Source: Dehalogenimonas sp. WBC-2
GTDB taxonomy: Bacteria; Chloroflexota; Dehalococcoidia; Dehalococcoidales; Dehalococcoidaceae
Direction of reading: 5' to 3'
DNA length: 64,000 nucleotides
NCBI GenBank assembly: GCA_001005265.1
Contig: CP011392.1
Location: 1,111,902 to 1,175,901, forward strand
Shown here piece by piece: positions 3,148-46,634 of this stretch. The position numbers were made by a program, and so were the translations under genes. Position 1 is the first letter of the stretch. Each line of letters begins with the position of its first letter. Under the pieces are notes generated by a model, which saw nothing but the letters and a program-made list of their open reading frames with translations, did no database searches and was not told the DNA's origin.

Positions 3148-3262
3148 GGGGCTTTTCGACCCCTAAATAGCCGTTCGTTCCAGGCATGCGGAGTGGCAAT
3201 GCTTCAAGTCTCTCCATTGTCATCCTACGCAAAAGCGAAGGATCCACGTTCCCACGTATCCA

Positions 3263-3972: not shown

Positions 3973-5070
3973 TCATGGTACCGGTATTCCTGCATAGACC
4001 GTGCCGTCAGCGGTTATGGTATAGGCAAATTTGGTATCCCGCACCAGGTACATTCCAGGGTCGTTAACGCCTCCCGTCTTCCCTCCCACTGGTATAATCT
4101 CGTTGTCATAAGCCACCACCGTGCCGTTGCCTTCAATCAGCGCCACCGTCACCGCCACTTTCACGTTATGCAATTCTGCCTGAAGTTCATCCATGTTAGG
4201 TTCCGTCGGCGGTGGTGGATTAGCCGGATCGGGGATACTGTCCGTAACGTCAATTGCCGCCAGCGCCTCGTCTGGCAGGGTGATACTTACCGGCTGGTTA
4301 ATACTGGTGTAGGTGATTGAAGTGACCTGTGTCTGACTCATGTCCCCGCTGACAAAAACGAGTGATGTATCCATCCTGGCTGGAAGATAATTTTCAGTGT
4401 TCACCCAGATGGTGACCTGTACCTGTTCCGGCTTGGGCTGGTTCGGGTCTGCCATCATGTCGGCTACTTCCTCAGCGGAACCGCCCAGGTATTCCAGTAT
4501 TTTTTCTGTGCTTGGCGTCACCTTGATTTTATAGGCCTGATTGCCGTTGACCGTTTCGGTACCCTGCAGTTCTACCGCCGCCCCTTCCGTCAGTACCGGA
4601 ATTTGGCCGGAAGTGTTATAAGAGTACCAGACCTGATCCCTCTGTTCGGCGGACAGAACCAATTTTTCCCAGACTCCGGATTCATTTCCCAGGTCGGACC
4701 GGTCTACCTTGGTGTATATAATGCCGTCAATCATAAATGTGCGTCCCTGCAAATTGCCGTGGCTGGTTTCACTTGTTATGTCCATGAACAGCTTTTTACC
4801 GGGGGCATCTATAGTCATGGCGTAGGTTGTGACCATATGTTGACCGTCCATACCGCCGCCGGACAGGGTCGCTGTCATGTCATAAGTAACCTCATAAGTC
4901 TTTATTCCGGCGGCTGCGGTTACAAGTGATGCCATAATCTCATCAACGGAGATATTGTTAGACACGTCAGTGGGTGATGGGTCAGCTTCTACCTCAGCGC
5001 AGCCGCTTAGCAGCCCGGCCGTCACAATCAGAGCCGGTACTGTTCCGGCCATTACCTTATTCCATTTCAT
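3973..5070 (-). CDS. Lipoprotein, possibly LolA-like fold, with Pro-rich linker and C-terminal beta domain (function unknown)
   Basis: 365 aa. Signal peptide plus lipobox LLSGC. PANPPPPTEP linker. Promoter cassette P2 lies upstream. The fold assignment is a guess from the sequence pattern only. Confidence 0.6.
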   Translation of the reverse strand: MKWNKVMAGTVPALIVTAGLLSGCAEVEADPSPTDVSNNISVDEIMASLVTAAAGIKTYEVTYDMTATLSGGGMDGQHMVTTYAMTIDAPGKKLFMDITSETSHGNLQGRTFMIDGIIYTKVDRSDLGNESGVWEKLVLSAEQRDQVWYSYNTSGQIPVLTEGAAVELQGTETVNGNQAYKIKVTPSTEKILEYLGGSAEEVADMMADPNQPKPEQVQVTIWVNTENYLPARMDTSLVFVSGDMSQTQVTSITYTSINQPVSITLPDEALAAIDVTDSIPDPANPPPPTEPNMDELQAELHNVKVAVTVALIEGNGTVVAYDNEIIPVGGKTGGVNDPGMYLVRDTKFAYTITADGTVYAGIPVP

Positions 5071-5107: not shown

Positions 5108-5150
5108 ATTATACCACCCCAACATGAACGGGAGATGAAGAAAGAGTGAA
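5108..5150 (-). promoter_or_regulatory. Promoter cassette P2: three direct repeats (TTCAC, TTCAT, TTCAT at 11-bp period) followed by TGGTATAAT
   Basis: Plus-strand gtgaa at 5146-5150, atgaa at 5135-5139 and atgaa at 5124-5128. The -10 is attata at 5108-5113 with an extended TG. Confidence 0.6.
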
Positions 5151-5359
5151 TTTGGATAAATTTTTAAAACCCCTTGTTGGAGCACCGCAGTTCCTACATT
5201 CACTCAAGTGCCGAACCGCCACGACCAAAGAAACAATTATAATGTAACCAGCAAAATAACTATGCTGTATAGATACAGCATTCAGACTCTCCTATGGGTA
5301 ATCGTTCCCATGGCGCTTTCTCACCTTTTCCCGTGATCTTGAACGGTATACCTACCTGC

Positions 5360-5587
5360 TTATCGGCTATTCGATAACCGCTTTATCCCCGCGTAAATTA
5401 AAAGAATGACGCCGATAAGCACAAATGTAAAATTGGTACTAACAAGAACGTTTAACGACGTTGATAAAACTTCAATCACAAGGGGCGTGGTGATCAAGGT
5501 TACGGCAATGACAATTATTTGTTCTAGGTTTGTATTAAATCCTGCGTATTTGATACTATCGCTCTTCTGACTAGTGTCTTTTCCCAT
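5360..5587 (-). CDS. Small membrane protein (2 predicted TM helices), unknown function
   Basis: 75 aa with two hydrophobic stretches. Lies in an AT-rich patch. Confidence 0.4.
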   Translation of the reverse strand: MGKDTSQKSDSIKYAGFNTNLEQIIVIAVTLITTPLVIEVLSTSLNVLVSTNFTFVLIGVILLIYAGIKRLSNSR

Positions 5588-5660
5588 GATAATCTCTCTT
5601 CCTATTTTGTTTTCGCTAGTTTTGCGGTGTTAATAATAAACTATGATCTGACTTAAATGA

Positions 5661-5698
5661 AGACTGAGGGAGCGGTAAACATACCGCTCCCTCAGTCT
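5661..5698 (-). terminator. Stem-loop downstream of the 5704..6507 gene
   Basis: Perfect 16-bp stem AGACTGAGGGAGCGGT / ACCGCTCCCTCAGTCT with a 6-nt loop, 5 nt after the stop codon. The U-tract is weak. Confidence 0.5.
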
Positions 5699-5703
5699 GG
5701 GGG

Positions 5704-6507
5704 TTACTGCCAATCTATCTGGATACTCGTCCACATTGTATAGTCTGGAGACCAAGAATGAACCGCCGATCCAGCAGCAAAAAGAGGAGATGATGCTTGA
5801 CCGTAAGTCTTGACTCTTACTTGGTAAGTTGACCCGGGAGTGAGATATGCTCCAATGGCTTCATAAAAATATCCGCCATAATCAGACCATTCCTGATTAG
5901 TGGTTATATTATACGGCGTGTTAGTGTTTAGATGATACCATTGGCCACCTGAATATTCGTACAAAGACACCGTCACTGTGTATGTGGCAGACGAATTGAC
6001 GCCACCAATTATATCAGCCCAAGTGAAGCCGTTATACCTTACGTATGCATATTGTGATCCACCTGATCCAGATACAGTGAAGGTCTCGCCGGTATATGCC
6101 CATGCGTATGCTTCACCTGAGGTGAAAAAACCACCTACCATATCGATTTTATTTCTGTTAAAATCAATATCAGCTTGATAGGCAAGATCAAACAAACCGA
6201 TTTTTTCGCCATAAGCATCACCAATGGTTGCTACATATATCGTACGATCAACTCCTTTCTCAATCGAGACTGAACGCGTCCCGGCACCAGAACTATCTTT
6301 CAATGTCGCAGCATAGCTGGCGTCACTTGCTTTTTTCCCCCAAGTCTCTGAGATTAGTAGGGCGATATCAGCATCAACAGTTTTTGCTTCTTTCTCAGAT
6401 ATTTTTGTAAAGAAAACAAGGATGCTATGGAGTGTATCTATGTCCATTGAGAGGATTTCGTCTTTGCTAAGTTGGTTGATCTTGGAGGTTAGGTTATATA
6501 TTACCAT
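5704..6507 (-). CDS. Hypothetical protein, Y/W/G/T-rich beta-type C-terminal half, no signal peptide
   Basis: 267-aa ORF in an AT-rich patch. It starts 6 nt after the stop of the 83-aa membrane ORF. I recognise no family. Confidence 0.55.
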   Translation of the reverse strand: MVIYNLTSKINQLSKDEILSMDIDTLHSILVFFTKISEKEAKTVDADIALLISETWGKKASDASYAATLKDSSGAGTRSVSIEKGVDRTIYVATIGDAYGEKIGLFDLAYQADIDFNRNKIDMVGGFFTSGEAYAWAYTGETFTVSGSGGSQYAYVRYNGFTWADIIGGVNSSATYTVTVSLYEYSGGQWYHLNTNTPYNITTNQEWSDYGGYFYEAIGAYLTPGSTYQVRVKTYGQASSPLFAAGSAVHSWSPDYTMWTSIQIDWQ

Positions 6508-6513
6508 TAGAAC

Positions 6514-6765
6514 CTATTTCTTATTCCCGCTTATCTTCATCTGTTTGCCGTTAAATACCCTCACCATAGAAAATATAAACATAGTGATTCCCAGCGGAAA
6601 TAAATATGAGCCGAAACTTAGCGGTCCCAGGAACGAGATGCCGGTTATGACCACTCCTATGATAGCAATGGTCAACCATGGTGCCTTGTTTCTGGTTTTG
6701 ATACTGGCAAGTACCCAAAACAAAAGGGCAATAAGTACGCCAGTTATAACTAAGTACAACAACAT
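6514..6765 (-). CDS. Small integral membrane protein (about 3 TM helices), unknown function
   Basis: 83 aa, strongly hydrophobic. Tightly linked to the 5704..6507 gene. Confidence 0.45.
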   Translation of the reverse strand: MLLYLVITGVLIALLFWVLASIKTRNKAPWLTIAIIGVVITGISFLGPLSFGSYLFPLGITMFIFSMVRVFNGKQMKISGNKK

Positions 6766-6938
6766 TTTATCTAACTCCTGTCTATCTTAAATATTTTTAT
6801 CTTAATGAATAGCACCAGTGATGGACTTGCTACTCACAAATGACTCAGTGAAATCCAGTTTCTAAAACTATTCTATGCATTTCTATTTAAGTATTTCATA
6901 TTTTGATTCATTCTAATACGGAAGATAGTAATATATCA

Positions 6939-6975
6939 GGATGGTGGAAGTAATAATCTTTCACTTCCACCATCC
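6939..6975 (-). terminator. Stem-loop downstream of the 6991..7821 gene
   Basis: 13-bp stem GGATGGTGGAAGT / ACTTCCACCATCC with an 11-nt loop, 15 nt after the stop codon. Confidence 0.5.
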
Positions 6976-6990
6976 CTCTGATTGAAAAAC

Positions 6991-7821
6991 TTACGCTAGT
7001 TCCCGATATCCATTAGCGTCTATCCATCCGCCTTGCACTAGTGTACCACTAAAATCGGACCAGTAATTCCAACCACCTGGCCAAGCGTTAACTTGTATTT
7101 TTTGCCAGTGGTTGTAATAGAGGTAACCACCTTCTCCAGGTGATGCAAAAGTAGCATCACAATTAATATGAACATCCCCATCAGAACCATTGGGATCCCA
7201 TCCACTGCCTAATGAGTACCTTTGCCACCAAGGAAAAACAGGATTAATCCATCCGTCATAAAACCAATCGCTTCCACCCCAGACATAACTGCCGTCATCA
7301 TAATAGTTCATTCCTGCTTTAACAGTAGTTATATCCCAAGAAACGACATCATTGTAGTCTTGTTCCGCATACATATGATAATGAATCGTGGAATCTAACA
7401 TACTATTCAAACGAGCAGCGTTTGCTAGATTAGGTTGTTCTAGTTTAGGTTCTTTGAGATCATAGGCTTTTGTTTGATCAGGGATTGGAGCATTGTCATA
7501 AGTGATTTGATCAACAATTAGTTCTCCATTGTCATTTACCTTTAATCTAACACTGGAGTGGCTAGCAGCGTCTGTTCCTGGAACAATGATACGAACATAT
7601 GGGAAATATACTCCTTCTTCACCTCCGTCCATCGTAACTATTTCTCCTGTTGCCACTACAGAACCGATGGTAACAGCTTTTTGCATACCGTCAACAATGA
7701 TGAAGATATGATTTGTATCCGGGGATTTTTCATCCGCCGCCGCCACACCGCCCCCACCCATCATCCCCACCAGGAGACTCAGTGACATGAAAACCATTAG
7801 AAACCGTTTCTTGAGCTTCAT
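6991..7821 (-). CDS. Secreted W/Y/G/D-rich protein of unknown function
   Basis: Start chosen at MKLKKRFLMVFMSLSLLVGMMGGGGVAAA (signal peptide), preceded by AAGGAAAG. The longer ORF to 7875 is rejected because the paralogous leader at 12755-12837 differs by indels that are not multiples of 3. Confidence 0.6.
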   Translation of the reverse strand: MKLKKRFLMVFMSLSLLVGMMGGGGVAAADEKSPDTNHIFIIVDGMQKAVTIGSVVATGEIVTMDGGEEGVYFPYVRIIVPGTDAASHSSVRLKVNDNGELIVDQITYDNAPIPDQTKAYDLKEPKLEQPNLANAARLNSMLDSTIHYHMYAEQDYNDVVSWDITTVKAGMNYYDDGSYVWGGSDWFYDGWINPVFPWWQRYSLGSGWDPNGSDGDVHINCDATFASPGEGGYLYYNHWQKIQVNAWPGGWNYWSDFSGTLVQGGWIDANGYRELA

Positions 7822-7938
7822 GGTATTGCTTTCCTTTCGTTTATTTAATGCCATTGGTTGCCAATTGAAACCCATTACACATTCATTGGAGTCCTCGCTT
7901 TTGCCTGTCGTGTATCGGTTATAGGCTGGTTATTCCCT

Positions 7939-8499
7939 CTATGCCCAAATTGACGACGCCCGGTCATTCCACCCCTGGAAGGTGAGCATAGTCCATGAGG
8001 AACCTGGCGGCATGTAGAAAGAGGAACCGCCGTAGTTTTCATAGTCATAAAGCGTGACGCCGCGGCTGTCACATATTTTGGCGGATGAAATGACGTTGTT
8101 AAACGTGCCCAGGTAATCCAATTCAGTACCGGGAGAAACGATCAGAGGCTCGCCTCCCACATAAAACACATCGACATAAAATTTGGAGGAGGTCAAACCG
8201 GTTGAGGTGATAACAACATTATCCAACGGGTCAAAGACGGGCCCGTACTCACTCTCCACAAAGGCTTCGAGCGCCTTCGCCGTGGTGAAGGCGTAGAGTG
8301 TCCCACTTTTATCCACGGTGAACCGTAGCCGCTGCCCGTCGAAAAGGTTGATCTCTTCAGACTCATACCTGACGCCGTCTATGATGACCGGGTGCATCGG
8401 TGCCACGTGTACAATAGCCGCCTTCAGCCTCGGCGGACATGGGGTACATGGCCTCAACCCCAGATGGTCTGAGGGGCTGTACTTTGGTATCATTGACAT
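7939..8499 (-). CDS. Beta/gamma-crystallin domain protein (probably missing its signal peptide because of a frameshift)
   Basis: The C-terminus has two Greek-key signatures: YVDVFYVGG...FNNVISS and YDYENYGG...WNDRASS (Y/FxxxxY/FxG ... N/D-x-x-SS). The 5' end overlaps the signal-peptide ORF 8363..8623 in another frame. Confidence 0.6.
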   Translation of the reverse strand: MSMIPKYSPSDHLGLRPCTPCPPRLKAAIVHVAPMHPVIIDGVRYESEEINLFDGQRLRFTVDKSGTLYAFTTAKALEAFVESEYGPVFDPLDNVVITSTGLTSSKFYVDVFYVGGEPLIVSPGTELDYLGTFNNVISSAKICDSRGVTLYDYENYGGSSFYMPPGSSWTMLTFQGWNDRASSIWA

Positions 8500-8623
8500 G
8501 TGAGTCCTTTTGGGTGTAATTTTCTGGCAAGGTAGCGGCAGAGGTGATACTGGATGCGGGAATTGCCAGTAAAATTGCGGCGCACAAACTCAAGAGCAGT
8601 TTCTTCATTTCTAATACCTCCAT
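8363..8623 (-). other. Signal-peptide-encoding 5' ORF fragment, likely the displaced N-terminus of the 7939..8499 gene
   Basis: MKKLLLSLCAAILLAIPASSITSAA is a clear Sec signal. The tail of this frame (AEAEGGYCTRGTDAPGHHRRRQV) looks non-native. Confidence 0.4.
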
Positions 8624-8647
8624 CGGTTATCTTTTATCACCGTGAAT

Positions 8648-8679
8648 AGCATAGCACCCCAAGATGACCGGGAGATGAC
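8648..8679 (-). promoter_or_regulatory. Promoter cassette P3: GGTCATCTCCCGGTCAT direct repeats followed by TGCTATGCT
   Basis: Plus-strand atgac at 8675-8679 and 8664-8668 (11-bp period). The -10 is agcata at 8648-8653. Lies in the 95-bp divergent region between the secreted-protein ORF and the response regulator gene. Confidence 0.6.
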
Positions 8680-8718
8680 CAACCCAAAGCTGGACTTAGG
8701 GTAAACTAAGGTACTGGT

Positions 8719-9393
8719 ATGAAAATTCTACTGGTCGAGGATGATCAAAAGCTCTGCCTGACTCTCCGGAAATCGTTGGGCGAAGCCGGGCACGTGGTTG
8801 ATTTTGCCCATGATGGCGAGACCGGACTCCTCTATGCCGCAACCTCGGAATATGATCTGCTCCTTTTGGACGTGATGCTGTCTGGTGAAAAAGACGGCAT
8901 TGATGTATGCCGGTCTTTAAGACAGCAAGGGTTCATCTTGCCTGTTATCATGCTGACCGGCAAAACCCACGTCAGAGACCGGGTGGACGGTCTGGACGCT
9001 GGGGCAGATGATTATGTCCTCAAACCATTTTCAATCACTGAACTGAAGGCGCGCATCAGGGCGCTGCAAAGAAAGCAGTTGCCGGGCACATCAACGCTCA
9101 TTGAAATTTCGGATGTCTCAATTGATACCGTCACTCACCTGGTCACAGCGGGCGGCAAGCCGGTAGACCTTCCGGCCATAGAATACCGGGCGCTGGAATA
9201 TTTCATTTCCAATCCGGCCAGGGTGCTCACCCGGACAATGCTGGAGGAGCATGTTTGGGGCGGAGAGACTGATAATAGGTCCAATACTGTGGAAGCGCTT
9301 ATAAAAAGGCTGCGCCAACACCTCGGCTGGGATGCCCTGACCGGCCCGCTTCAGACCGTACGTGGACAGGGTTACAGGCTAAAGCCGTCATGA
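8719..9393 (+). CDS. OmpR/PhoB-family response regulator
   Basis: 224 aa. Receiver domain (LVEDD, LLLDVMLSG, KPF) and winged-helix output ending VRGQGYRLK. Confidence 0.93.
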   Translation: MKILLVEDDQKLCLTLRKSLGEAGHVVDFAHDGETGLLYAATSEYDLLLLDVMLSGEKDGIDVCRSLRQQGFILPVIMLTGKTHVRDRVDGLDAGADDYVLKPFSITELKARIRALQRKQLPGTSTLIEISDVSIDTVTHLVTAGGKPVDLPAIEYRALEYFISNPARVLTRTMLEEHVWGGETDNRSNTVEALIKRLRQHLGWDALTGPLQTVRGQGYRLKPS

Positions 9394-10757
9394 GACTCTG
9401 GCTGAAAAGCGTCAAGTTCAAGCTGACGGTTTTATATTCATTAGTCCTCGTGGCTGTTCTGGTCGTTTTTGGCCTTATTTCCTGGGCGTTCTTATCCTTC
9501 GGTTTGTTCAATAACCTAGAGGACTCGTTGGCGGCAGATTTCTCCAGCGTTAAAGACAACATCCAAAGAAACACTGGTGACGACCTGCCTGAACTGCTTG
9601 CTGAACTGGAACATGGGCTTGCCGGTTCACTTTTTGTTTACGATATCGCATCGGCAACATTATTCGGAAACCATTTCGATACAGATGCTGTCCGAGCAGC
9701 CCTGATTGATTTTATACCTCTAGGCGAAACGGCTCAGATCAAAAAAAGTCCTGACGGTCAGTTTCGCATGTATATTGCGCGTTACGACCAGGAGGCGGCT
9801 CCAGACAGGCTCTTGATAATTACCCGTCATGCCGGTTACATCTACGACACGCTTGAGGATTACAAGAACGTTCTTTATACACTGATTCCTTTTGTCATCG
9901 TCATCGCCGGCGTCTCTGGTTACTTCCTTGCCAGCCGCTCTATGAAACAGGTGAAGGTGATCACCGCCACCGCCAACGGCATTGATCCCGCTGACCTCAA
10001 AGACCGCATCCCCGTCAGGGGCAATGATGAACTGGGGCAATTGTCGCGCACCCTCAACTCATCCTTTGACCGCATCCACGGCTTCATTGACCGGCAGCGG
10101 CAGTTCGCCGCAGACGCCACCCATGACCTGAAGGCGCCCCTGACCAATATCAAGACACAGACTGAGGTGGCGTTGGACCGGAACCGTCCGGGTGCAGAGT
10201 ATCGGGACACCCTGCGCTCCATCGCCGAGGACACGGAGCAGATGGAGTCCATCGTTGAAGACCTGCTGACCCTGGCCAGTCTGGATACTGCGCCGGATGC
10301 CCAACACAGCACTCGCTTTGATCTTTCCAATGTTGCTGAGGACGCCCTTGACGGCTGGGAAGTCCCCTGCGCCGCCAAGGGCTTGACCCTTGCCCGCCGC
10401 ATCCAACCGGATATTGAGATAACCGGGGAACCGCTGGACTTCCAGCGTGTCTTGGGTAATCTCCTGGAGAACGCCGTCAAGGCTACCAGCGCGGGTGGCG
10501 TCACCGTTACCATGAACGAGAGCGGCGGAATAATCACCCTGACCGTAACTGACACCGGTATCGGTATCGCCCCGGAACACCTGCAAAAGATATTCTGGCG
10601 TTTCTACCGGGTTGACCGTCATGCTAAGGGCAACGGTCTGGGTCTGCCCATCGTCCAAGGCATCGCGGAGATGTACGGCGGGCGGGTGGAGGTAGAGAGT
10701 GAGGTGGGGCGAGGCACGGTGTTTCGGGTGGTCATACCTGCTCAGGACAGAGCTTGA
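9390..10757 (+). CDS. Sensor histidine kinase (2 TM, extracytoplasmic loop, HAMP, HisKA, HATPase_c)
   Basis: ATGA start/stop overlap with the RR gene. H-box ATHDLKAPLT, N-box LLENAVKA, DTGIGI, GNGLGLPIV. Confidence 0.93.
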   Translation: MRLWLKSVKFKLTVLYSLVLVAVLVVFGLISWAFLSFGLFNNLEDSLAADFSSVKDNIQRNTGDDLPELLAELEHGLAGSLFVYDIASATLFGNHFDTDAVRAALIDFIPLGETAQIKKSPDGQFRMYIARYDQEAAPDRLLIITRHAGYIYDTLEDYKNVLYTLIPFVIVIAGVSGYFLASRSMKQVKVITATANGIDPADLKDRIPVRGNDELGQLSRTLNSSFDRIHGFIDRQRQFAADATHDLKAPLTNIKTQTEVALDRNRPGAEYRDTLRSIAEDTEQMESIVEDLLTLASLDTAPDAQHSTRFDLSNVAEDALDGWEVPCAAKGLTLARRIQPDIEITGEPLDFQRVLGNLLENAVKATSAGGVTVTMNESGGIITLTVTDTGIGIAPEHLQKIFWRFYRVDRHAKGNGLGLPIVQGIAEMYGGRVEVESEVGRGTVFRVVIPAQDRA

Positions 10758-11072
10758 GCCAGCCGCCAGATATTTTTCTTTCTCTCCTTTCTTCTTTCAG
10801 CCACATCTACACTGTGAATGTTTTATGGATTTCCAAAAGAACAGAATCACCACCAACAACAGTTATGGCAATAACCAAAACTGGCTCACTCATATTATTT
10901 CTGGGGTTGTTTTTAATTTAGACCTCCTAATCAGTCTCTTTTTCCACGATAACCTCTTTCGTAGTTCTTTAACTTGTTATTCGGCGATAATGATAAACCA
11001 TGATATATAACTAAAACTACAGAACTGGGACTGTTTATTTACCACTACCACTGCACAATAATTACTACCAAT

Positions 11073-11627
11073 CTATTTGGACGGAACAACCAGATCACCA
11101 ATCTTTACATCAAGTATTGGTGTGAAGGAAATATCCCCACTGGGTAGTGTATTAACAGAACTACCAGTATCGAAGATGACCACCAAAAATGGAATAATGG
11201 GTATTGAACCCCTTTTATTGCGGATTTCAAAATCAATATCTAATGTAATATTGTTGTTTGTAATACTAGCGGTGGTAATTTTGCCATCCTTGAAGGTGAC
11301 GCTAACGCTGTCTATAGCCAAACGAATTTGTGAATATTTGGCATTTCTCAAGTTATCCGTTGCTATAGAAAACTGAGAGTCTTTAATTTCCATGAGGTTG
11401 AAGGTGTTGCGAGTTTCATTAATTTCAATTACAGTCCATTTTTGCGCCGAAACTTCATAAACTTGAATACTTGATAATGTCACTGCCACAGCGTCTATAT
11501 CTTTATATAAAACATTTGAACTGACATAGATATCGATCTGTGACTTAGGAGAAATCAAACCACAACCTGAAAGAAGCATCAATGATAGTATTAGCAGTGT
11601 ATGAATTGAAGAAAGATACTTGGACAT
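11073..11627 (-). CDS. Lipoprotein, DUF4382-like
   Basis: 184 aa. Lipobox LLSGC. The pattern ...VTLSSIQVY...W..I......FNLMEI.......A...L....YSQIRL...SV.V matches my recollection of DUF4382. Confidence 0.6.
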   Translation of the reverse strand: MSKYLSSIHTLLILSLMLLSGCGLISPKSQIDIYVSSNVLYKDIDAVAVTLSSIQVYEVSAQKWTVIEINETRNTFNLMEIKDSQFSIATDNLRNAKYSQIRLAIDSVSVTFKDGKITTASITNNNITLDIDFEIRNKRGSIPIIPFLVVIFDTGSSVNTLPSGDISFTPILDVKIGDLVVPSK

Positions 11628-11654
11628 TTTGTTACCTCCTTAATTGGTGTGCGT

Positions 11655-11683
11655 GAATTGGGCGGGTTATCCCCGCCCAATTC
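11655..11683 (-). terminator. Stem-loop between the 11711..12754 and 11073..11627 genes
   Basis: 12-bp GC-rich stem GAATTGGGCGGG / CCCGCCCAATTC with a 5-nt loop. No clear U-tract on the minus strand. Confidence 0.4.
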
Positions 11684-11710
11684 AATTTATGCCGTAGACT
11701 TGATGGGTAT

Positions 11711-12754
11711 TCAGTTGTTCGTGTTCAATGTTACTGTGCTCCCCGACGTGGAAACGGACAAACCAGTGAGATTTGGGAAATTGTTACTGTTCACTGTTGT
11801 GCTGCAAGAGTAACTTACAGTTGAATCGTCATGTTTCAGTGCAATATTCGTAAAAACAGTGTCGCCTGGGACATCGCTATTATAGTAGATATTATACCCT
11901 TCGAGTGTCCAGTAATGGCGTAAACCAAATATACCATCATGTCCAAAACCTGTTTCGACGTAAAAACCCGATGTTTCACCGGTAGTGAGATTTTTGATCT
12001 GTACTCGCCATTCTTCCCACGGGACTATCTGATACATCCATCCTTCCATTTGGTCGTTAACACTGCAATCAATAGAAGAGGCTGCATAATCATTCCCAAA
12101 TGTTTGAGCAAACCACGCTCTTCCTGTCCATGCATGACTTCCTCCTTGATTCCATTCCAACACTGGTTGAATTATTTTATCTCCTGCCCATGGTTCAATG
12201 CCACTAAATAGAAAATCTATTGCAGAGGACGAAGGGTTCTGAGCAAATGATGGAACAATCCATTTACAATAGCTTTCATCTATGCGAAGGCCTGTGTCAT
12301 GCGCATCTTCTATCCACCCATTGCCCGCACTAGGTACTGTGAGACGGGAGACTTTACTTTTATCTCTAAAGGATTTAGGCTCGATAACCGTAAATAAAAC
12401 CTCTCCATTTTTAATGATAACGGTACTATTCCCCGTATCCCGAATGTGAACGTCGTTTGGCACGGAAAACACATGTGTCGCTATTTTTTCTCCCTGTGGA
12501 GTAATTATTGATGTTGCATTTGCATCATTCGTCTTGAAAAGGAGTTGGCCGTCGGACGAGAAAACATTGGTAATACCGGATTCAAGTTGTTCAACAATAG
12601 AGCCTTTAGGTATCTTCACCCCATCATTACCAGTGCTAAATCCATTGTTAACAACAACGTATTCAGTGGCCGCCGCCACACTGCCACCCCCCAGCATCCC
12701 CGCTAGGAGTGTCATTGTGCAGAAGACTGTCAAGAACCTTTTTTTGAATGACAT
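11711..12754 (-). CDS. Secreted protein, C-terminal half possibly a glutamic-peptidase (G1/eqolisin)-like beta-sandwich
   Basis: Start chosen at MSFKKRFLTVFCTMTLLAGMLGGGSVAAA, a signal peptide paralogous to that of the 6991..7821 gene. C-terminal motifs WIVPS, FSGIEPW, IIQPVLEW, KNLTTGETS, WTLEG and TVFTNIAL resemble the G1 family order. Confidence 0.6.
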   Translation of the reverse strand: MSFKKRFLTVFCTMTLLAGMLGGGSVAAATEYVVVNNGFSTGNDGVKIPKGSIVEQLESGITNVFSSDGQLLFKTNDANATSIITPQGEKIATHVFSVPNDVHIRDTGNSTVIIKNGEVLFTVIEPKSFRDKSKVSRLTVPSAGNGWIEDAHDTGLRIDESYCKWIVPSFAQNPSSSAIDFLFSGIEPWAGDKIIQPVLEWNQGGSHAWTGRAWFAQTFGNDYAASSIDCSVNDQMEGWMYQIVPWEEWRVQIKNLTTGETSGFYVETGFGHDGIFGLRHYWTLEGYNIYYNSDVPGDTVFTNIALKHDDSTVSYSCSTTVNSNNFPNLTGLSVSTSGSTVTLNTNN

Positions 12755-12892
12755 TTTAGCTTTCCCTTCGTTTATTTTAATACCGTTGGCTGCCAATTGA
12801 AGCATTTATACATTCATCGGAGTCCTCGCTTTCGCCATTCCCAGTTGACGTGATTTTGATTAACCAACATCATGGCTTTTAGGTCACGGAAG

Positions 12893-12924
12893 ATCATAGC
12901 ACTCCAACATGACCGGGAGATGAC
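12893..12924 (-). promoter_or_regulatory. Promoter cassette P4: GGTCATCTCCCGGTCAT direct repeats followed by TGCTATGAT
   Basis: Plus-strand atgac at 12920-12924 and 12909-12913. The -10 is atcata at 12893-12898. About 70 bp is nearly identical to P3. Confidence 0.6.
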
Positions 12925-12960
12925 CAGCCCAAAGCTGGATTTAGGGTAAACTAAGGTACT

Positions 12961-13413
12961 ATGGCCATTTTATACGCTGCCCTCGGTCCGCAGGGACGCG
13001 GCATGCCGTGTCCACCCGTAAACAGTGTTTTTCCACAGCAAATCGTAAGGTACCATCTCGTCCGCCCACCACATCATTCTCCGCGAAACCGGAGGGGAGT
13101 TGTAGTGTATTTCGTAGGGTCTCTCGTAGGGGCCGATCTGAGATCGGCCCTATCCCCAGCCCTGTCCGGCGCAAACCGAAGTGTTTTCTTCTTCTAATTC
13201 GTCATCTTGGAAGCTTGTCCCCCCTCTCCGTTGACGGAGAGGGGGCTAGGGGGTGAGGTTTCGCATCTGCCGGGTTAAACTTGAAGCCTGTCCCCATAGC
13301 GCGACATCGGTATGCTATTCCCCAAGTATGTCTGCCGGATTGATCTTCTTTACAATGTTATTGACCATGTATCCCCCCTCTCCGTTGACGGAGAGGGGGC
13401 TAGGGGGTGAGGT
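12961..13413. repeat. Intergenic mosaic of palindromic repeat units
   Basis: Hairpins GGACGCGGCA/TGCCGTGTCC (12994-13013) and TAGGGGCCGATCT/AGATCGGCCCTA (13127-13152). Two identical 42-nt units cccccctctccgttgacggagagggggctagggggtgaggt at 13218-13259 and 13372-13413. Confidence 0.85.
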
Positions 13414-13455
13414 AGACTCCCCAAAAATAAATGCCCAAAAAGTTCCAAAACCCCA

Positions 13456-13484
13456 TTGACAATCACAATCATGAATACTACTAT
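13456..13484 (+). promoter_or_regulatory. Promoter module copy A (TTGACA-17 nt-TACTAT)
   Basis: ccaaaaccccaTTGACAatcac is shared almost exactly with copy B (29689) and copy C (46243). GGAG at 13507-13510 precedes the TTG start at 13517. Confidence 0.6.
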
Positions 13485-13516
13485 ATATCTATTAATTATT
13501 AGAACAGGAGAACACA

Positions 13517-46499: not shown

Positions 46500-46634
46500 T
46501 AACCTATACATCGTTGCGAAGAGAAAAACAGAACCTGTTCGGTTCCCTTTTATCATTCCAGGCAAAAGCGGAGAATCCACCAATACGTTCGCTCTGCCTG
46601 CCCTGAGCTAGCACTTGGGGACCCTGCCGATGAC
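46500..46634. repeat. REP-like repeat units
   Basis: Contains a degenerate gttgcgaag...ggttccc unit and aggcaaaagcggagaatccaccaatacgttcgctctgcctgccctgagctagcacttgggg. Closely related to 50089-50143 and 3401-3500. Confidence 0.75.

Follow-up and report, generated by a model that had tools for sequence, protein, structure and literature searches.

In Borrelia burgdorferi, the Erp-OspE/F-Elp lipoprotein genes reportedly carry an upstream homology box (UHB), studies by Marconi et al. (1996) and Akins et al. (1999) being named in this connection. Paralogous loci of this family are said to share a 5' non-coding block together with the signal peptide, to encode divergent or unrelated mature parts and to be co-regulated, and recombination via the 5' block has reportedly been invoked. 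The vsp and vlp families of Mycoplasma follow a similar pattern. Here, we describe an arrangement for which the Borrelia UHB/Erp family seems, by analogy, to be the closest precedent, namely, a 5' block and leader peptide shared by genes whose mature products diverge. It comes from Dehalogenimonas sp. WBC-2, whose genome (49% GC) is one contig of 1.73 Mb. The analysed stretch of 64,000 nt (contig CP011392.1, positions 1,111,902 to 1,175,901; hereafter, the window) contains two genes for secreted proteins, A and B, which begin with the same module. This module is composed of a strong Shine–Dalgarno sequence (SD), a mini open reading frame (mini-ORF) of three codons, an A-rich spacer of 51-91 nt, a weak SD, the main start codon and a 29-residue signal peptide of the Sec/signal peptidase I (SPase-I) type.

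The differences from Borrelia are also clear. There, the products are said to be lipoproteins encoded on the prophage plasmids of a pathogen, the conserved DNA is reportedly a promoter/operator, and no SD-driven mini-ORF is said to be described. In Dehalogenimonas, the loci are chromosomal, the signal is of the SPase-I type, a response-regulator (RR) box promoter lies separately upstream, at least one cargo is of foreign composition, and an ORF of three codons is conserved. The titles of both Borrelia studies are included in the reference list of PMC10016077. As for the host, an organohalide-respiring Dehalococcoidia lifestyle fits its genome, since ~20 reductive-dehalogenase genes are found there.

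Copies of the module and the end of their homology

Regions 7735-7907 and 12670-12837 of the window, both on the minus strand, are 76% identical over ~170 nt (E 1.4e-26). Their alignment begins ~20 nt 5' of a GAGGA motif and falls to background right past the AAA signal-peptidase site. Both the homology and its abrupt end had been pointed out in the original prediction, made from the letters of the window, together with a pair of mini-ORFs that read Met-Asn-Val-stop and are preceded, 5 nt upstream, by GAGGA; our analysis bears these observations out. The same is true of the indels between mini-ORF and main start, which in the alignment of A and B are not multiples of three, and of the view that the leader is conserved at the nucleotide level and not as protein. 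The mature domains had been called non-alignable, and the best BLASTP E-value between them is indeed 0.15, with an hhalign probability below 10%. Given this lack of similarity between the mature domains at the BLASTP and profile level, a simple recent gene duplication was rejected.

The genome contains exactly five occurrences of ATGAATGTRTRA, every one within a leader copy. Besides A and B in the window, these are copy C at 531.7 kb, copy D at 49.5 kb, whose ORF is truncated past the signal peptide, and copy E at 1668 kb, in which the start is ACG, the signal peptide is broken and the cargo is deleted. Beyond this genome, BLAST and a covariance model built from sequence only (R1) added four copies from two congeneric genomes, one in G002 and three (G003a, G003b and G003c) in G003, bringing the total to nine. 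No convincing match appeared in seven other genomes of the genus, three genomes of sister genera and ~200 other genomes of the order and class, and a class-level covariance-model scan returned only matches at chance level (~15 bits). Exact-pattern scans of metagenome and genome collections yielded only contigs (JXWO01...) identical to leaders A, C and D, plus chance matches from Flavobacterium and others. When the signal peptide alone served as the query in a word-based search, the sole match was P0002, a metagenome protein from ENA that has the same signal peptide, a trace of the leader read as MNERKTQ, and then yet another mature sequence.

According to BLASTP, the cargos fall into the groups A with G003c, B, C, G002, G003a and G003b (crystallin-like), with P0002 as the seventh, so that the module continues in frame into no fewer than seven unrelated mature proteins. 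A profile of the B family gave hhalign probabilities below 10% against A, C, G002 and G003a. The cargos might still be very remotely homologous, A and C in particular; the AF2 model of A, with a pLDDT of 39, was unusable.

The signal peptides follow the consensus M(K/S/Q)(L/F)KKR, FLMVFMSLxLLxGM and GGGxVAAA and, by inspection, possess the features expected of Sec/SPase-I substrates: a basic n-region, a hydrophobic h-region of ~15 residues and a c-region of small residues with AxA, with no lipobox cysteine. Within the B/E subfamily, the stretch KRFL(M/T)VF is retained as a peptide despite many synonymous codon changes; because these changes leave the peptide intact, we consider the signal peptide to be selected as a peptide.

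Composition changes where homology ends. The GC content at third codon positions (GC3) is high in both signal peptides and low in both cargos (Table 1), and the drop sits exactly at the junction between them. Genes behind the cargos are likewise low (0.37 for orf267 and 0.33 for the DUF4382 gene), as compared with 0.58-0.64 in the native neighbours, namely, the RR and histidine kinase (HK) genes and the crystallin-like, DUF6612 and MacB genes. Each module is therefore a native-looking front end joined to a low-GC island that starts at the signal-peptidase site.

Cargo B provides a further line of evidence. Its family has 405 representatives (E <=1e-3) in a library of 1.8 billion proteins; all 37 top matches with inspected N-termini carry other signal peptides, and none of the 150 matches listed has a KKRF-type motif. 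Elsewhere in the phylum, 300 genomes were sampled, and no member of the B family turned up in them. The GC3 seam and this absence of the family from the sampled genomes together suggest that B was acquired horizontally and that its own 5' end was swapped for the resident module.

Overall, we are highly confident in describing the element as a lineage-specific 5' expression-and-export module, and its modular reuse ahead of unrelated secreted-protein genes is strongly supported. The idea of a cassette placed in front of different cargo genes, put forward in the original prediction, now rests on nine copies from three genomes, at least seven cargo groups, the break in codon composition at the junction and the occurrence of the B family elsewhere with other signal peptides. 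That first description was accurate, while it had overlooked the response-regulator promoter upstream, the association with two-component systems and the fact that the cargos are foreign in composition. One detail did not stand, namely, the supposed kinship of the leader start with a dispersed repeat. The repeat, a REP-like palindromic unit (tgtcATTCTaCGCaAAAGCGgAGAATcc), is intergenic and has 11 matches in the genome at up to three mismatches, one of them being leader A itself (7888-7906), which agrees with the units at 46560 and 50090 of the window at 16 of 19 positions. The leader has no counterpart of the left arm, and the corresponding sequence is different in copies C, D, G002 and G003, so we rejected the link; the resemblance of leader A to the right half of the unit is probably coincidental or at most a relic. 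The remaining sites of tgtcATTCTaCGCaAAAGCGgAGAATcc are at 3227, 46560 and 50090 of the window and at seven other places in the genome.

Leader sequence, upstream promoters and the mini-ORF

A purine-rich SD (SD1) lies 5-9 nt upstream of the mini-ORF in all nine copies. Its sequence varies by copy (GAGGA, AGGAGG, GGAGGAGGGAG, AAGGAGGAG, GAAGGCGG, GCGAGGTG), and its duplex with the 3' end of the genome's own 16S rRNA has an energy between -7.1 and -15.8 kcal/mol. For comparison, the main SD is uniformly weak (-5.6 to -5.9 kcal/mol), SD1 being the stronger in every copy, and only 4.5% of random genomic ATGs have an upstream duplex of -8 kcal/mol or below. The mini-ORF keeps the form ATG AAT G(T/G)(G/A) T(A/G)A throughout: codon 3 is GTG, GTA or GGA, both TAA and TGA are used, and the reading is Met-Asn-Gly-stop in the three copies from G003 and Met-Asn-Val-stop in the other six. 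The spacer that follows measures 51-55 nt, or ~90 nt in G002, G003a and G003b through a tandem duplication of ~40 nt, and a block TAAAATAAAC-GAAAGGAAA precedes the main ATG in all nine copies. Seven copies have a restart codon at the mini-ORF stop, either overlapping or directly adjoining it (AUGA, GUGA, UAAUG, UAAAUG). The second upstream ORF that it opens stops short of the main ATG by 13-16 nt in D and G003a-c and by 29 nt in C; in A, where the ATG overlaps the stop, and in B, where it abuts it, this codon is in frame with the main ATG and the frame runs into it. To us, the restart codons look like translational coupling towards the weak main start.

The module is preceded by a promoter of recurring form: a direct repeat whose half-sites are spaced by 11 bp is separated by 8 bp from an extended -10 element (for example, GGTCATCTCCCGGTCATGTTGGAGTGCTATGAT). 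The pattern (G/T)(G/T)TCAT-N5-G(G/T)TCAT, N8, TGnTAnnnT has eight sites in the genome plus variants and shows the layout of OmpR/PhoB-type activated promoters, in which the repeats stand in place of the -35 element, ~8 bp upstream of the -10. An exact GGTCAT-N5-GGTCAT occurs three times, only in homologous promoter blocks, i.e., upstream of B, upstream of E and between the RR and crystallin-like genes of locus A. Close variants are also present in loci C and E; copy D has GTTCAG-N5-GTTCAG plus TGGTAGAGT ~60 nt upstream of the mini-ORF, and the crystallin-like genes of G002 and G003 follow TGTCAT-N5-TGTCAG plus TGCTATTAT. In total, an RR-box promoter lies upstream of the leader in eight of the nine copies, the exception being G003c, where an insertion sequence (IS) interrupts it. 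Genes for both an OmpR-type RR and an HK adjoin A/B, C, D and G003a/b, while G002 has the HK alone and G003c the HK and a partial RR.

Such an arrangement makes it most likely that the leader is separate from the promoter and lies in a 5' untranslated region (UTR) or between cistrons. We would place it in the 5' UTR in B, D and E, with ~70 nt from the predicted transcription start to the mini-ORF, and in the spacer behind a beta/gamma-crystallin-like gene in A, C, G002 and G003a/b. Since the half-site varies by locus (GGTCAT, GTTCAG, TGTCAT) and the leader is shared by all, we argue that the leader works post-transcriptionally. The locus-specific half-sites (GGTCAT, TTCAT, GTTCAG) may belong to paralogous regulators with distinct specificities.

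Short ORFs with their own SD in a leader are known as upstream ORFs (uORFs) or leader peptides. Sensory uORFs usually have at least eight codons and act via defined alternative structures, Rho or terminators. Another relevant case is STAB-SD of Bacillus thuringiensis cryIIIA, a 5' mRNA stabiliser at which a ribosome is bound to a strong SD and which needs no start codon or ORF. Like ermCL, hbs (PMC5737220), Escherichia coli toiL (PMC12121999) and the uRBS/uORF of Sinorhizobium meliloti (PMC13285730), the leaders described here contain a short ORF with its own SD, and a stop/start overlap might point to translational coupling. The uORF literature describes both coupling and occlusion. The combination of SD, start and in-frame stop within the leader is found in nine of the nine copies. 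Our case differs from sensory uORFs in that the ORF has three codons and that no alternative structure, Rho or terminator device was detected: no terminator was found in the leader, and region 6500-13500 of the window gave no Rfam match at the E-value threshold. A limited literature search returned no described counterpart to a 3-codon ORF conserved across the leaders of paralogous secreted-protein genes. With STAB-SD and with B. subtilis hbs, our leaders share a strong SD well upstream of, or apart from, a weak main start, in a host with both RNase J and RNase Y; in B. subtilis, ribosomes initiating at a strong SD block RNase J1 (PMC5737220). In Dehalogenimonas sp. WBC-2, both RNase J (592 bits vs a 400-bit cut-off) and RNase Y (699 vs 454) are encoded. 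Unlike STAB-SD, however, the modules strictly keep the AUG and the stop, and the 12-mer itself is conserved; an effect on stability would be putative here.

Keeping these parallels in mind, we propose that ribosomes translate the mini-ORF, which would work in cis by using its strong SD and start codon to hold a ribosome on the leader. The bound ribosome may shield the cargo cistron from decay by RNase Y and RNase J; alternatively or additionally, ribosomes might be relayed to the weak main start through the second uORF, whose start overlaps the mini-ORF stop. That the mini-ORF is such a ribosome-loading, protective or relay element is a conjecture to which we give close to an even chance, and, more generally, a regulatory role for the uORF or leader, as suggested in the original prediction, is plausible from the sequence features.

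Several points weigh against our proposal. Both transcription and translation of the leader are predictions from sequence. Since only three genomes, themselves related, supply the nine copies, these are not independent. The restart codon is missing from G002 and from pseudogene E, and the lengths of the second uORF are within chance expectation. The 12-mer varies at only three positions, which makes preservation of the ORF statistically weak when taken alone (about 0.17 by our estimate), and nine of its twelve bases, including AAT, are invariant, which hints at a sequence-specific role that a stabiliser does not explain. Finally, a weak -35/-10-like pair, TTCCCA-17-TAAAAT, inside the leader might be an internal promoter.

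The last two points lead to a rival explanation, in which a protein would bind the 12-mer and its flanks as an operator, or these would belong to an internal promoter, at the DNA or RNA level. Each cargo would then have its own promoter, with the block at about -50 bound by an activator or repressor, and the SD and ORF would look accidental. An invariant codon 2 free of synonymous change fits a recognition sequence better than it fits any short ORF; read on the reverse strand, the 12-mer gives ATTCAT, a half-site variant of the RR boxes; copies C and G003 contain a direct repeat ATGAA-N3-ATGAA; and, by our reading, -35-like TTCCCA/TTYCAA and -10-like TAAAAT elements keep a constant spacing of 16-17 nt in all nine copies. 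However, a much better promoter with canonical 11-bp repeats lies upstream of the leader in eight of these nine, the leader has one half-site only and the wrong geometry (a period of 8 bp), and its -10-like element lacks the TGn extension of the clear promoters. A consensus promoter scan did not select the hexamer pair in A or B, and the complementarity of SD1 to the anti-SD survives the turnover of its sequence, which an operator does not predict. We therefore regard this explanation as unlikely, and it stays alive because the nine invariant bases are not accounted for by ribosome loading.

Two other readings were rejected. The idea of a CsrA target, based on GGA motifs, was dropped, given that the genome has no CsrA gene; a sigma-54 promoter read as TGGCA-N-GGCA was discarded on inspection, the spacing in A being off by one and the GC element being absent from B.

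It is also tempting to suppose that the mini-ORF acts through RNA structure. In such a switch, the mini-ORF (UGAAUGURU) would pair with the region of the main start (AUG.CAUUCA) and sequester it, and translation of the mini-ORF would melt the helix and turn the cargo on. RNAalifold does propose exactly such a long-range helix; TGAATG and CATTCA are perfectly complementary in B, C and E, and the helix appears in the single-sequence minimum free energy (MFE) folds of C, G002 and G003a. The consensus energy is nevertheless a marginal -2.2 kcal/mol with essentially no covariation, in no copy does the duplex beat those of shuffled sequences (a fraction of 0.06-0.69 of the shuffles reaches the observed energy or a lower one), copy A pairs poorly, a U-to-G change weakens the helix in the three G003 copies, the MFE folds differ among copies, and no Rfam family was matched. 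On these grounds, we rejected the switch, which seems to us very improbable.

Cargo genes, neighbourhood and mosaic evolution

The features of the window are collected in Table 1.

Table 1. Features of modules A and B and of the neighbouring genes in the window (coordinates are window positions).
Feature	Position	Strand	Remarks
Sec-type signal peptide A (MKLKKRFLMVFMSLSLLVGMMGGGGVAAA)	7735..7821	-	GC3 0.72
Sec-type signal peptide B (MSFKKRFLTVFCTMTLLAGMLGGGSVAAA)	12668..12754	-	GC3 0.69
SD1 of mini-ORF A, GAGGA	7892..7896	-	Anti-SD duplex -8.0 kcal/mol
Mini-ORF A, ATG AAT GTG TAA (ATGAATGTGTAA)	7875..7886	-	Met-Asn-Val-stop
Leader A spacer	7822..7874	-	TAATG stop/start overlap with mini-ORF stop, ATG 7873-7875
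Weak main SD of A, GAAAGGAAA	7830-7838	-	Within leader A spacer
SD1 of mini-ORF B, GAGGA	12823..12827	-	5 nt before ATG; -8.1 kcal/mol vs -5.6 for main SD
Mini-ORF B, ATG AAT GTA TAA (ATGAATGTATAA)	12806..12817	-	Met-Asn-Val-stop
Leader B spacer, conserved A-rich TAAAATAAAC	12755..12805	-	ATG 12803-12805 abuts mini-ORF stop
Weak main SD of B, GAAGGGAAA	12761-12769	-	Within leader B spacer
Cargo A, orphan Trp/Gly-rich secreted protein	6991..7734	-	GC3 0.30; frameshifted orthologue in G003
Cargo B, pro-domain and G1/eqolisin-fold glutamic peptidase-like domain	11711..12667	-	GC3 0.36
DUF4382 lipoprotein gene downstream of B	11073..11627	-	Same low-GC island; GC3 0.33
Beta/gamma-crystallin-like (Inhibitor_I36-like) secreted-protein gene	7939..8623	-	First cistron upstream of leader A
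RR-box promoter of B transcript, GGTCAT-N5-GGTCAT then TGcTATGAT	12893..12925	-	Position weight matrix (PWM) scan; alignment with intergenic region of locus A
RR-box promoter of crystallin-like/A operon	8648..8680	-	Intergenic, divergent from RR gene
RR-box promoter CTTCATCTCCCGTTCATGTTGGGGTGGTATAAT of DUF6612 lipoprotein gene (3973-5070)	5108..5140	-	Same regulon, without mini-ORF leader
OmpR-family RR (8719-9393) and HAMP/HisKA HK (9390-10757)	8719..10757	+	Pfam; between modules A and B

Cargo B might be a secreted pro-peptidase of the G1 type. Its AF2 model, built with 60 homologues, has a pLDDT of 91.8, and Foldseek matches its C-terminal beta-sandwich with glutamic peptidases: scytalidoglutamic peptidase 2ifw at E 1.4e-11 and, together with 2ifr and 1s2b, the range 1e-11 to 5e-10, with target-normalised TM scores of 0.68-0.72. 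In a sequence profile search of PDB, B matched aspergilloglutamic peptidase 1y43_B (E 4e-5). Residues Q196 and E285 are invariant in the 60 homologues; Q196 aligns with Gln24 of 1y43_B, the Glu of the profile aligns three residues from the Glu of WIVE, and E285 lies at most three residues from the presumed catalytic Glu. Gln24 and this Glu are what we take to be the catalytic dyad of 1y43_B. The Pfam family Peptidase_A4/G1 gave no score for cargo B.

By comparison with B, cargos A and C are orphans. Among 5.8 billion proteins, A found itself and one match limited to the signal peptide, and C found no homologues; neither has a Pfam match or an informative sequence match in PDB, and a search of the ESM Atlas with cargo A gave sub-threshold leads only.

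Low-GC islands that begin at the A and B signal-peptidase sites extend over 5200-6990 and 10760-11710 of the window (GC 0.32-0.44, GC3 0.33-0.37). Beyond the cargos, they contain an ORF of 83 aa with three transmembrane segments (3-TM), ORFs of 267 and 75 aa, and the DUF4382 lipoprotein gene. The crystallin-like gene ahead of leader A is split by a frameshift into ORF 8363-8623, with the start and signal peptide, and ORF 7939-8499, with the body, the two overlapping by 137 nt; this could reflect a pseudogene, a sequencing error or programmed frameshifting. Paralogues of this gene precede the leader in C, G002 and G003b, and a deleted remnant precedes it in G003a (G003:C1:446000-465900, 12430-12770), where the RR-box is followed by the first ~15 codons of the crystallin-like gene fused to its last ~40. 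The internal deletion would leave the promoter driving the leader almost directly. In G003c (G003:C1:1508000-1526000, 7829-9941), a frameshift divides the orthologue of cargo A into ORFs 9111-9545 and 9552-9941, a transposase pair of the IS3 type replaces the RR-box immediately upstream of the leader, and the adjacent RR gene is truncated; this locus looks decayed. In copy E (genome 1667414-1668029), a lipoprotein gene directly follows the broken signal peptide and is 79% identical to the one downstream of cargo C (531658-533305); thus, copy E keeps the partner lipoprotein without a cargo.

Scanning the genome with a PWM of the RR-box returned ~12 sites ahead of genes for lipoproteins and secreted proteins, several of whose products start with MKW(N/H)K. 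They include 5108-5140(-) in the window and 534620(+), 1666178(-), 1667287(-), 34965(-), 657389(+), 50273(+) and 1720439(+) in the genome, and together they look like a candidate two-component regulon. On the divergent side of the promoter block of B and E, a short ORF (MAILYAALGPQG...) is present at 12961-13197(+) of the window and at ~1668.2 kb; it holds the place of the MKILLVEDD start in locus A and appears to be what is left of an RR gene after its deletion, with dispersed repeats coming next.

The history of the module seems to be a mosaic one. The signal-peptide blocks of A and G003c are 94% identical in nucleotides, with 89% identical third positions, as compared with 42-56% identical third positions in five other orthologue pairs of the same two genomes and with a protein identity of just 30-48% for the cargos of A and G003c themselves. 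The block of SD and mini-ORF clusters by genome instead: A goes with B and E (81%), and G003c with G003a/b (84%), the GGA codon being common to all three. Because the identities differ by block in this way, we infer recombination or gene conversion inside the module. The 33-nt RR-box promoter of the next gene is 100% identical between loci A and C.

Such ongoing homogenisation can also be turned against a function of the leader. It might have spread recently by duplication or gene conversion, hitch-hiking with a selected signal peptide and carrying the mini-ORF as a neutral passenger; the mosaic block identities, the clustering of the first block by genome and the shared GGA codon in G003 speak for this, the element is limited to three of the ten sampled genomes of the genus, and copies D and E have decayed. 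Yet, the leaders already show 60-80% divergence, with indels and a 40-nt duplication, and still the strength of SD1, the 12-mer, the A-rich block and the main SD (SD2) persist in all of them, across species. The synonymous changes with a conserved peptide in B and E also point to selection and not to recency. A functionless leader thus seems improbable to us.

The module is a plausible homology arm for cargo exchange, and the RR-box promoter of the next gene could be a second one. Homologous recombination via the module would bring genes for secreted proteins, whether resident or newly acquired, under a common front end for regulation and export. It is tempting to go further and to imagine a cassette-capture system with the module as its constant arm. 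Recombination, with the leader and signal peptide as the 5' arm and the following gene's RR-box promoter as the 3' arm, would swap in low-GC islands; these islands would be acquired horizontally, each consisting of a secreted effector (e.g., the G1 peptidase) and a partner lipoprotein or membrane gene; all would be under two-component control; and the mini-ORF would serve as a relay or gate that passes ribosomes via the overlapping second uORF to a deliberately weak cargo start. All these parts taken jointly, we consider such a system quite unlikely.

Polymorphic toxin/immunity cassettes such as CdiA-CT and Rhs have a constant N-terminal part and a variable C-terminal cargo, with a sharp drop in GC at the junction. 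Our loci resemble them in the constant front and variable cargo, in the GC drop, in the small partner gene (lipoprotein or membrane protein) that follows B, C, G003a and A, and in copy E, where the cargo is deleted and the partner lipoprotein is kept. They differ in that the constant part is only a leader and signal peptide, that no toxin domain was recognised, B being a G1 peptidase-like pro-enzyme, and that no demarcating VENN or PxxxxDPxGL motif is present.

Meaning for Dehalogenimonas

Our analysis appears to show how a hard-to-culture dechlorinator with a small genome domesticates acquired genes for secreted proteins: a resident front end, regulated in common, takes the place of their own signal peptide and translation start. 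As a trace of such a replacement, the change in codon composition, located right at the signal-peptidase site, is unusually clean. If the mini-ORF is inert, the finding is an ordinary lineage-specific paralogous 5' region. As a candidate for a minimal cis-acting ORF, the mini-ORF is compact and testable, with three codons, a strong SD and conservation in all nine copies, and it belongs to the Chloroflexota, a phylum in which post-transcriptional control is almost unstudied. Moreover, the predicted two-component regulon of secreted and envelope proteins, among them beta/gamma-crystallin-like proteins and a putative glutamic peptidase, could be relevant to the surface biology of Dehalogenimonas.

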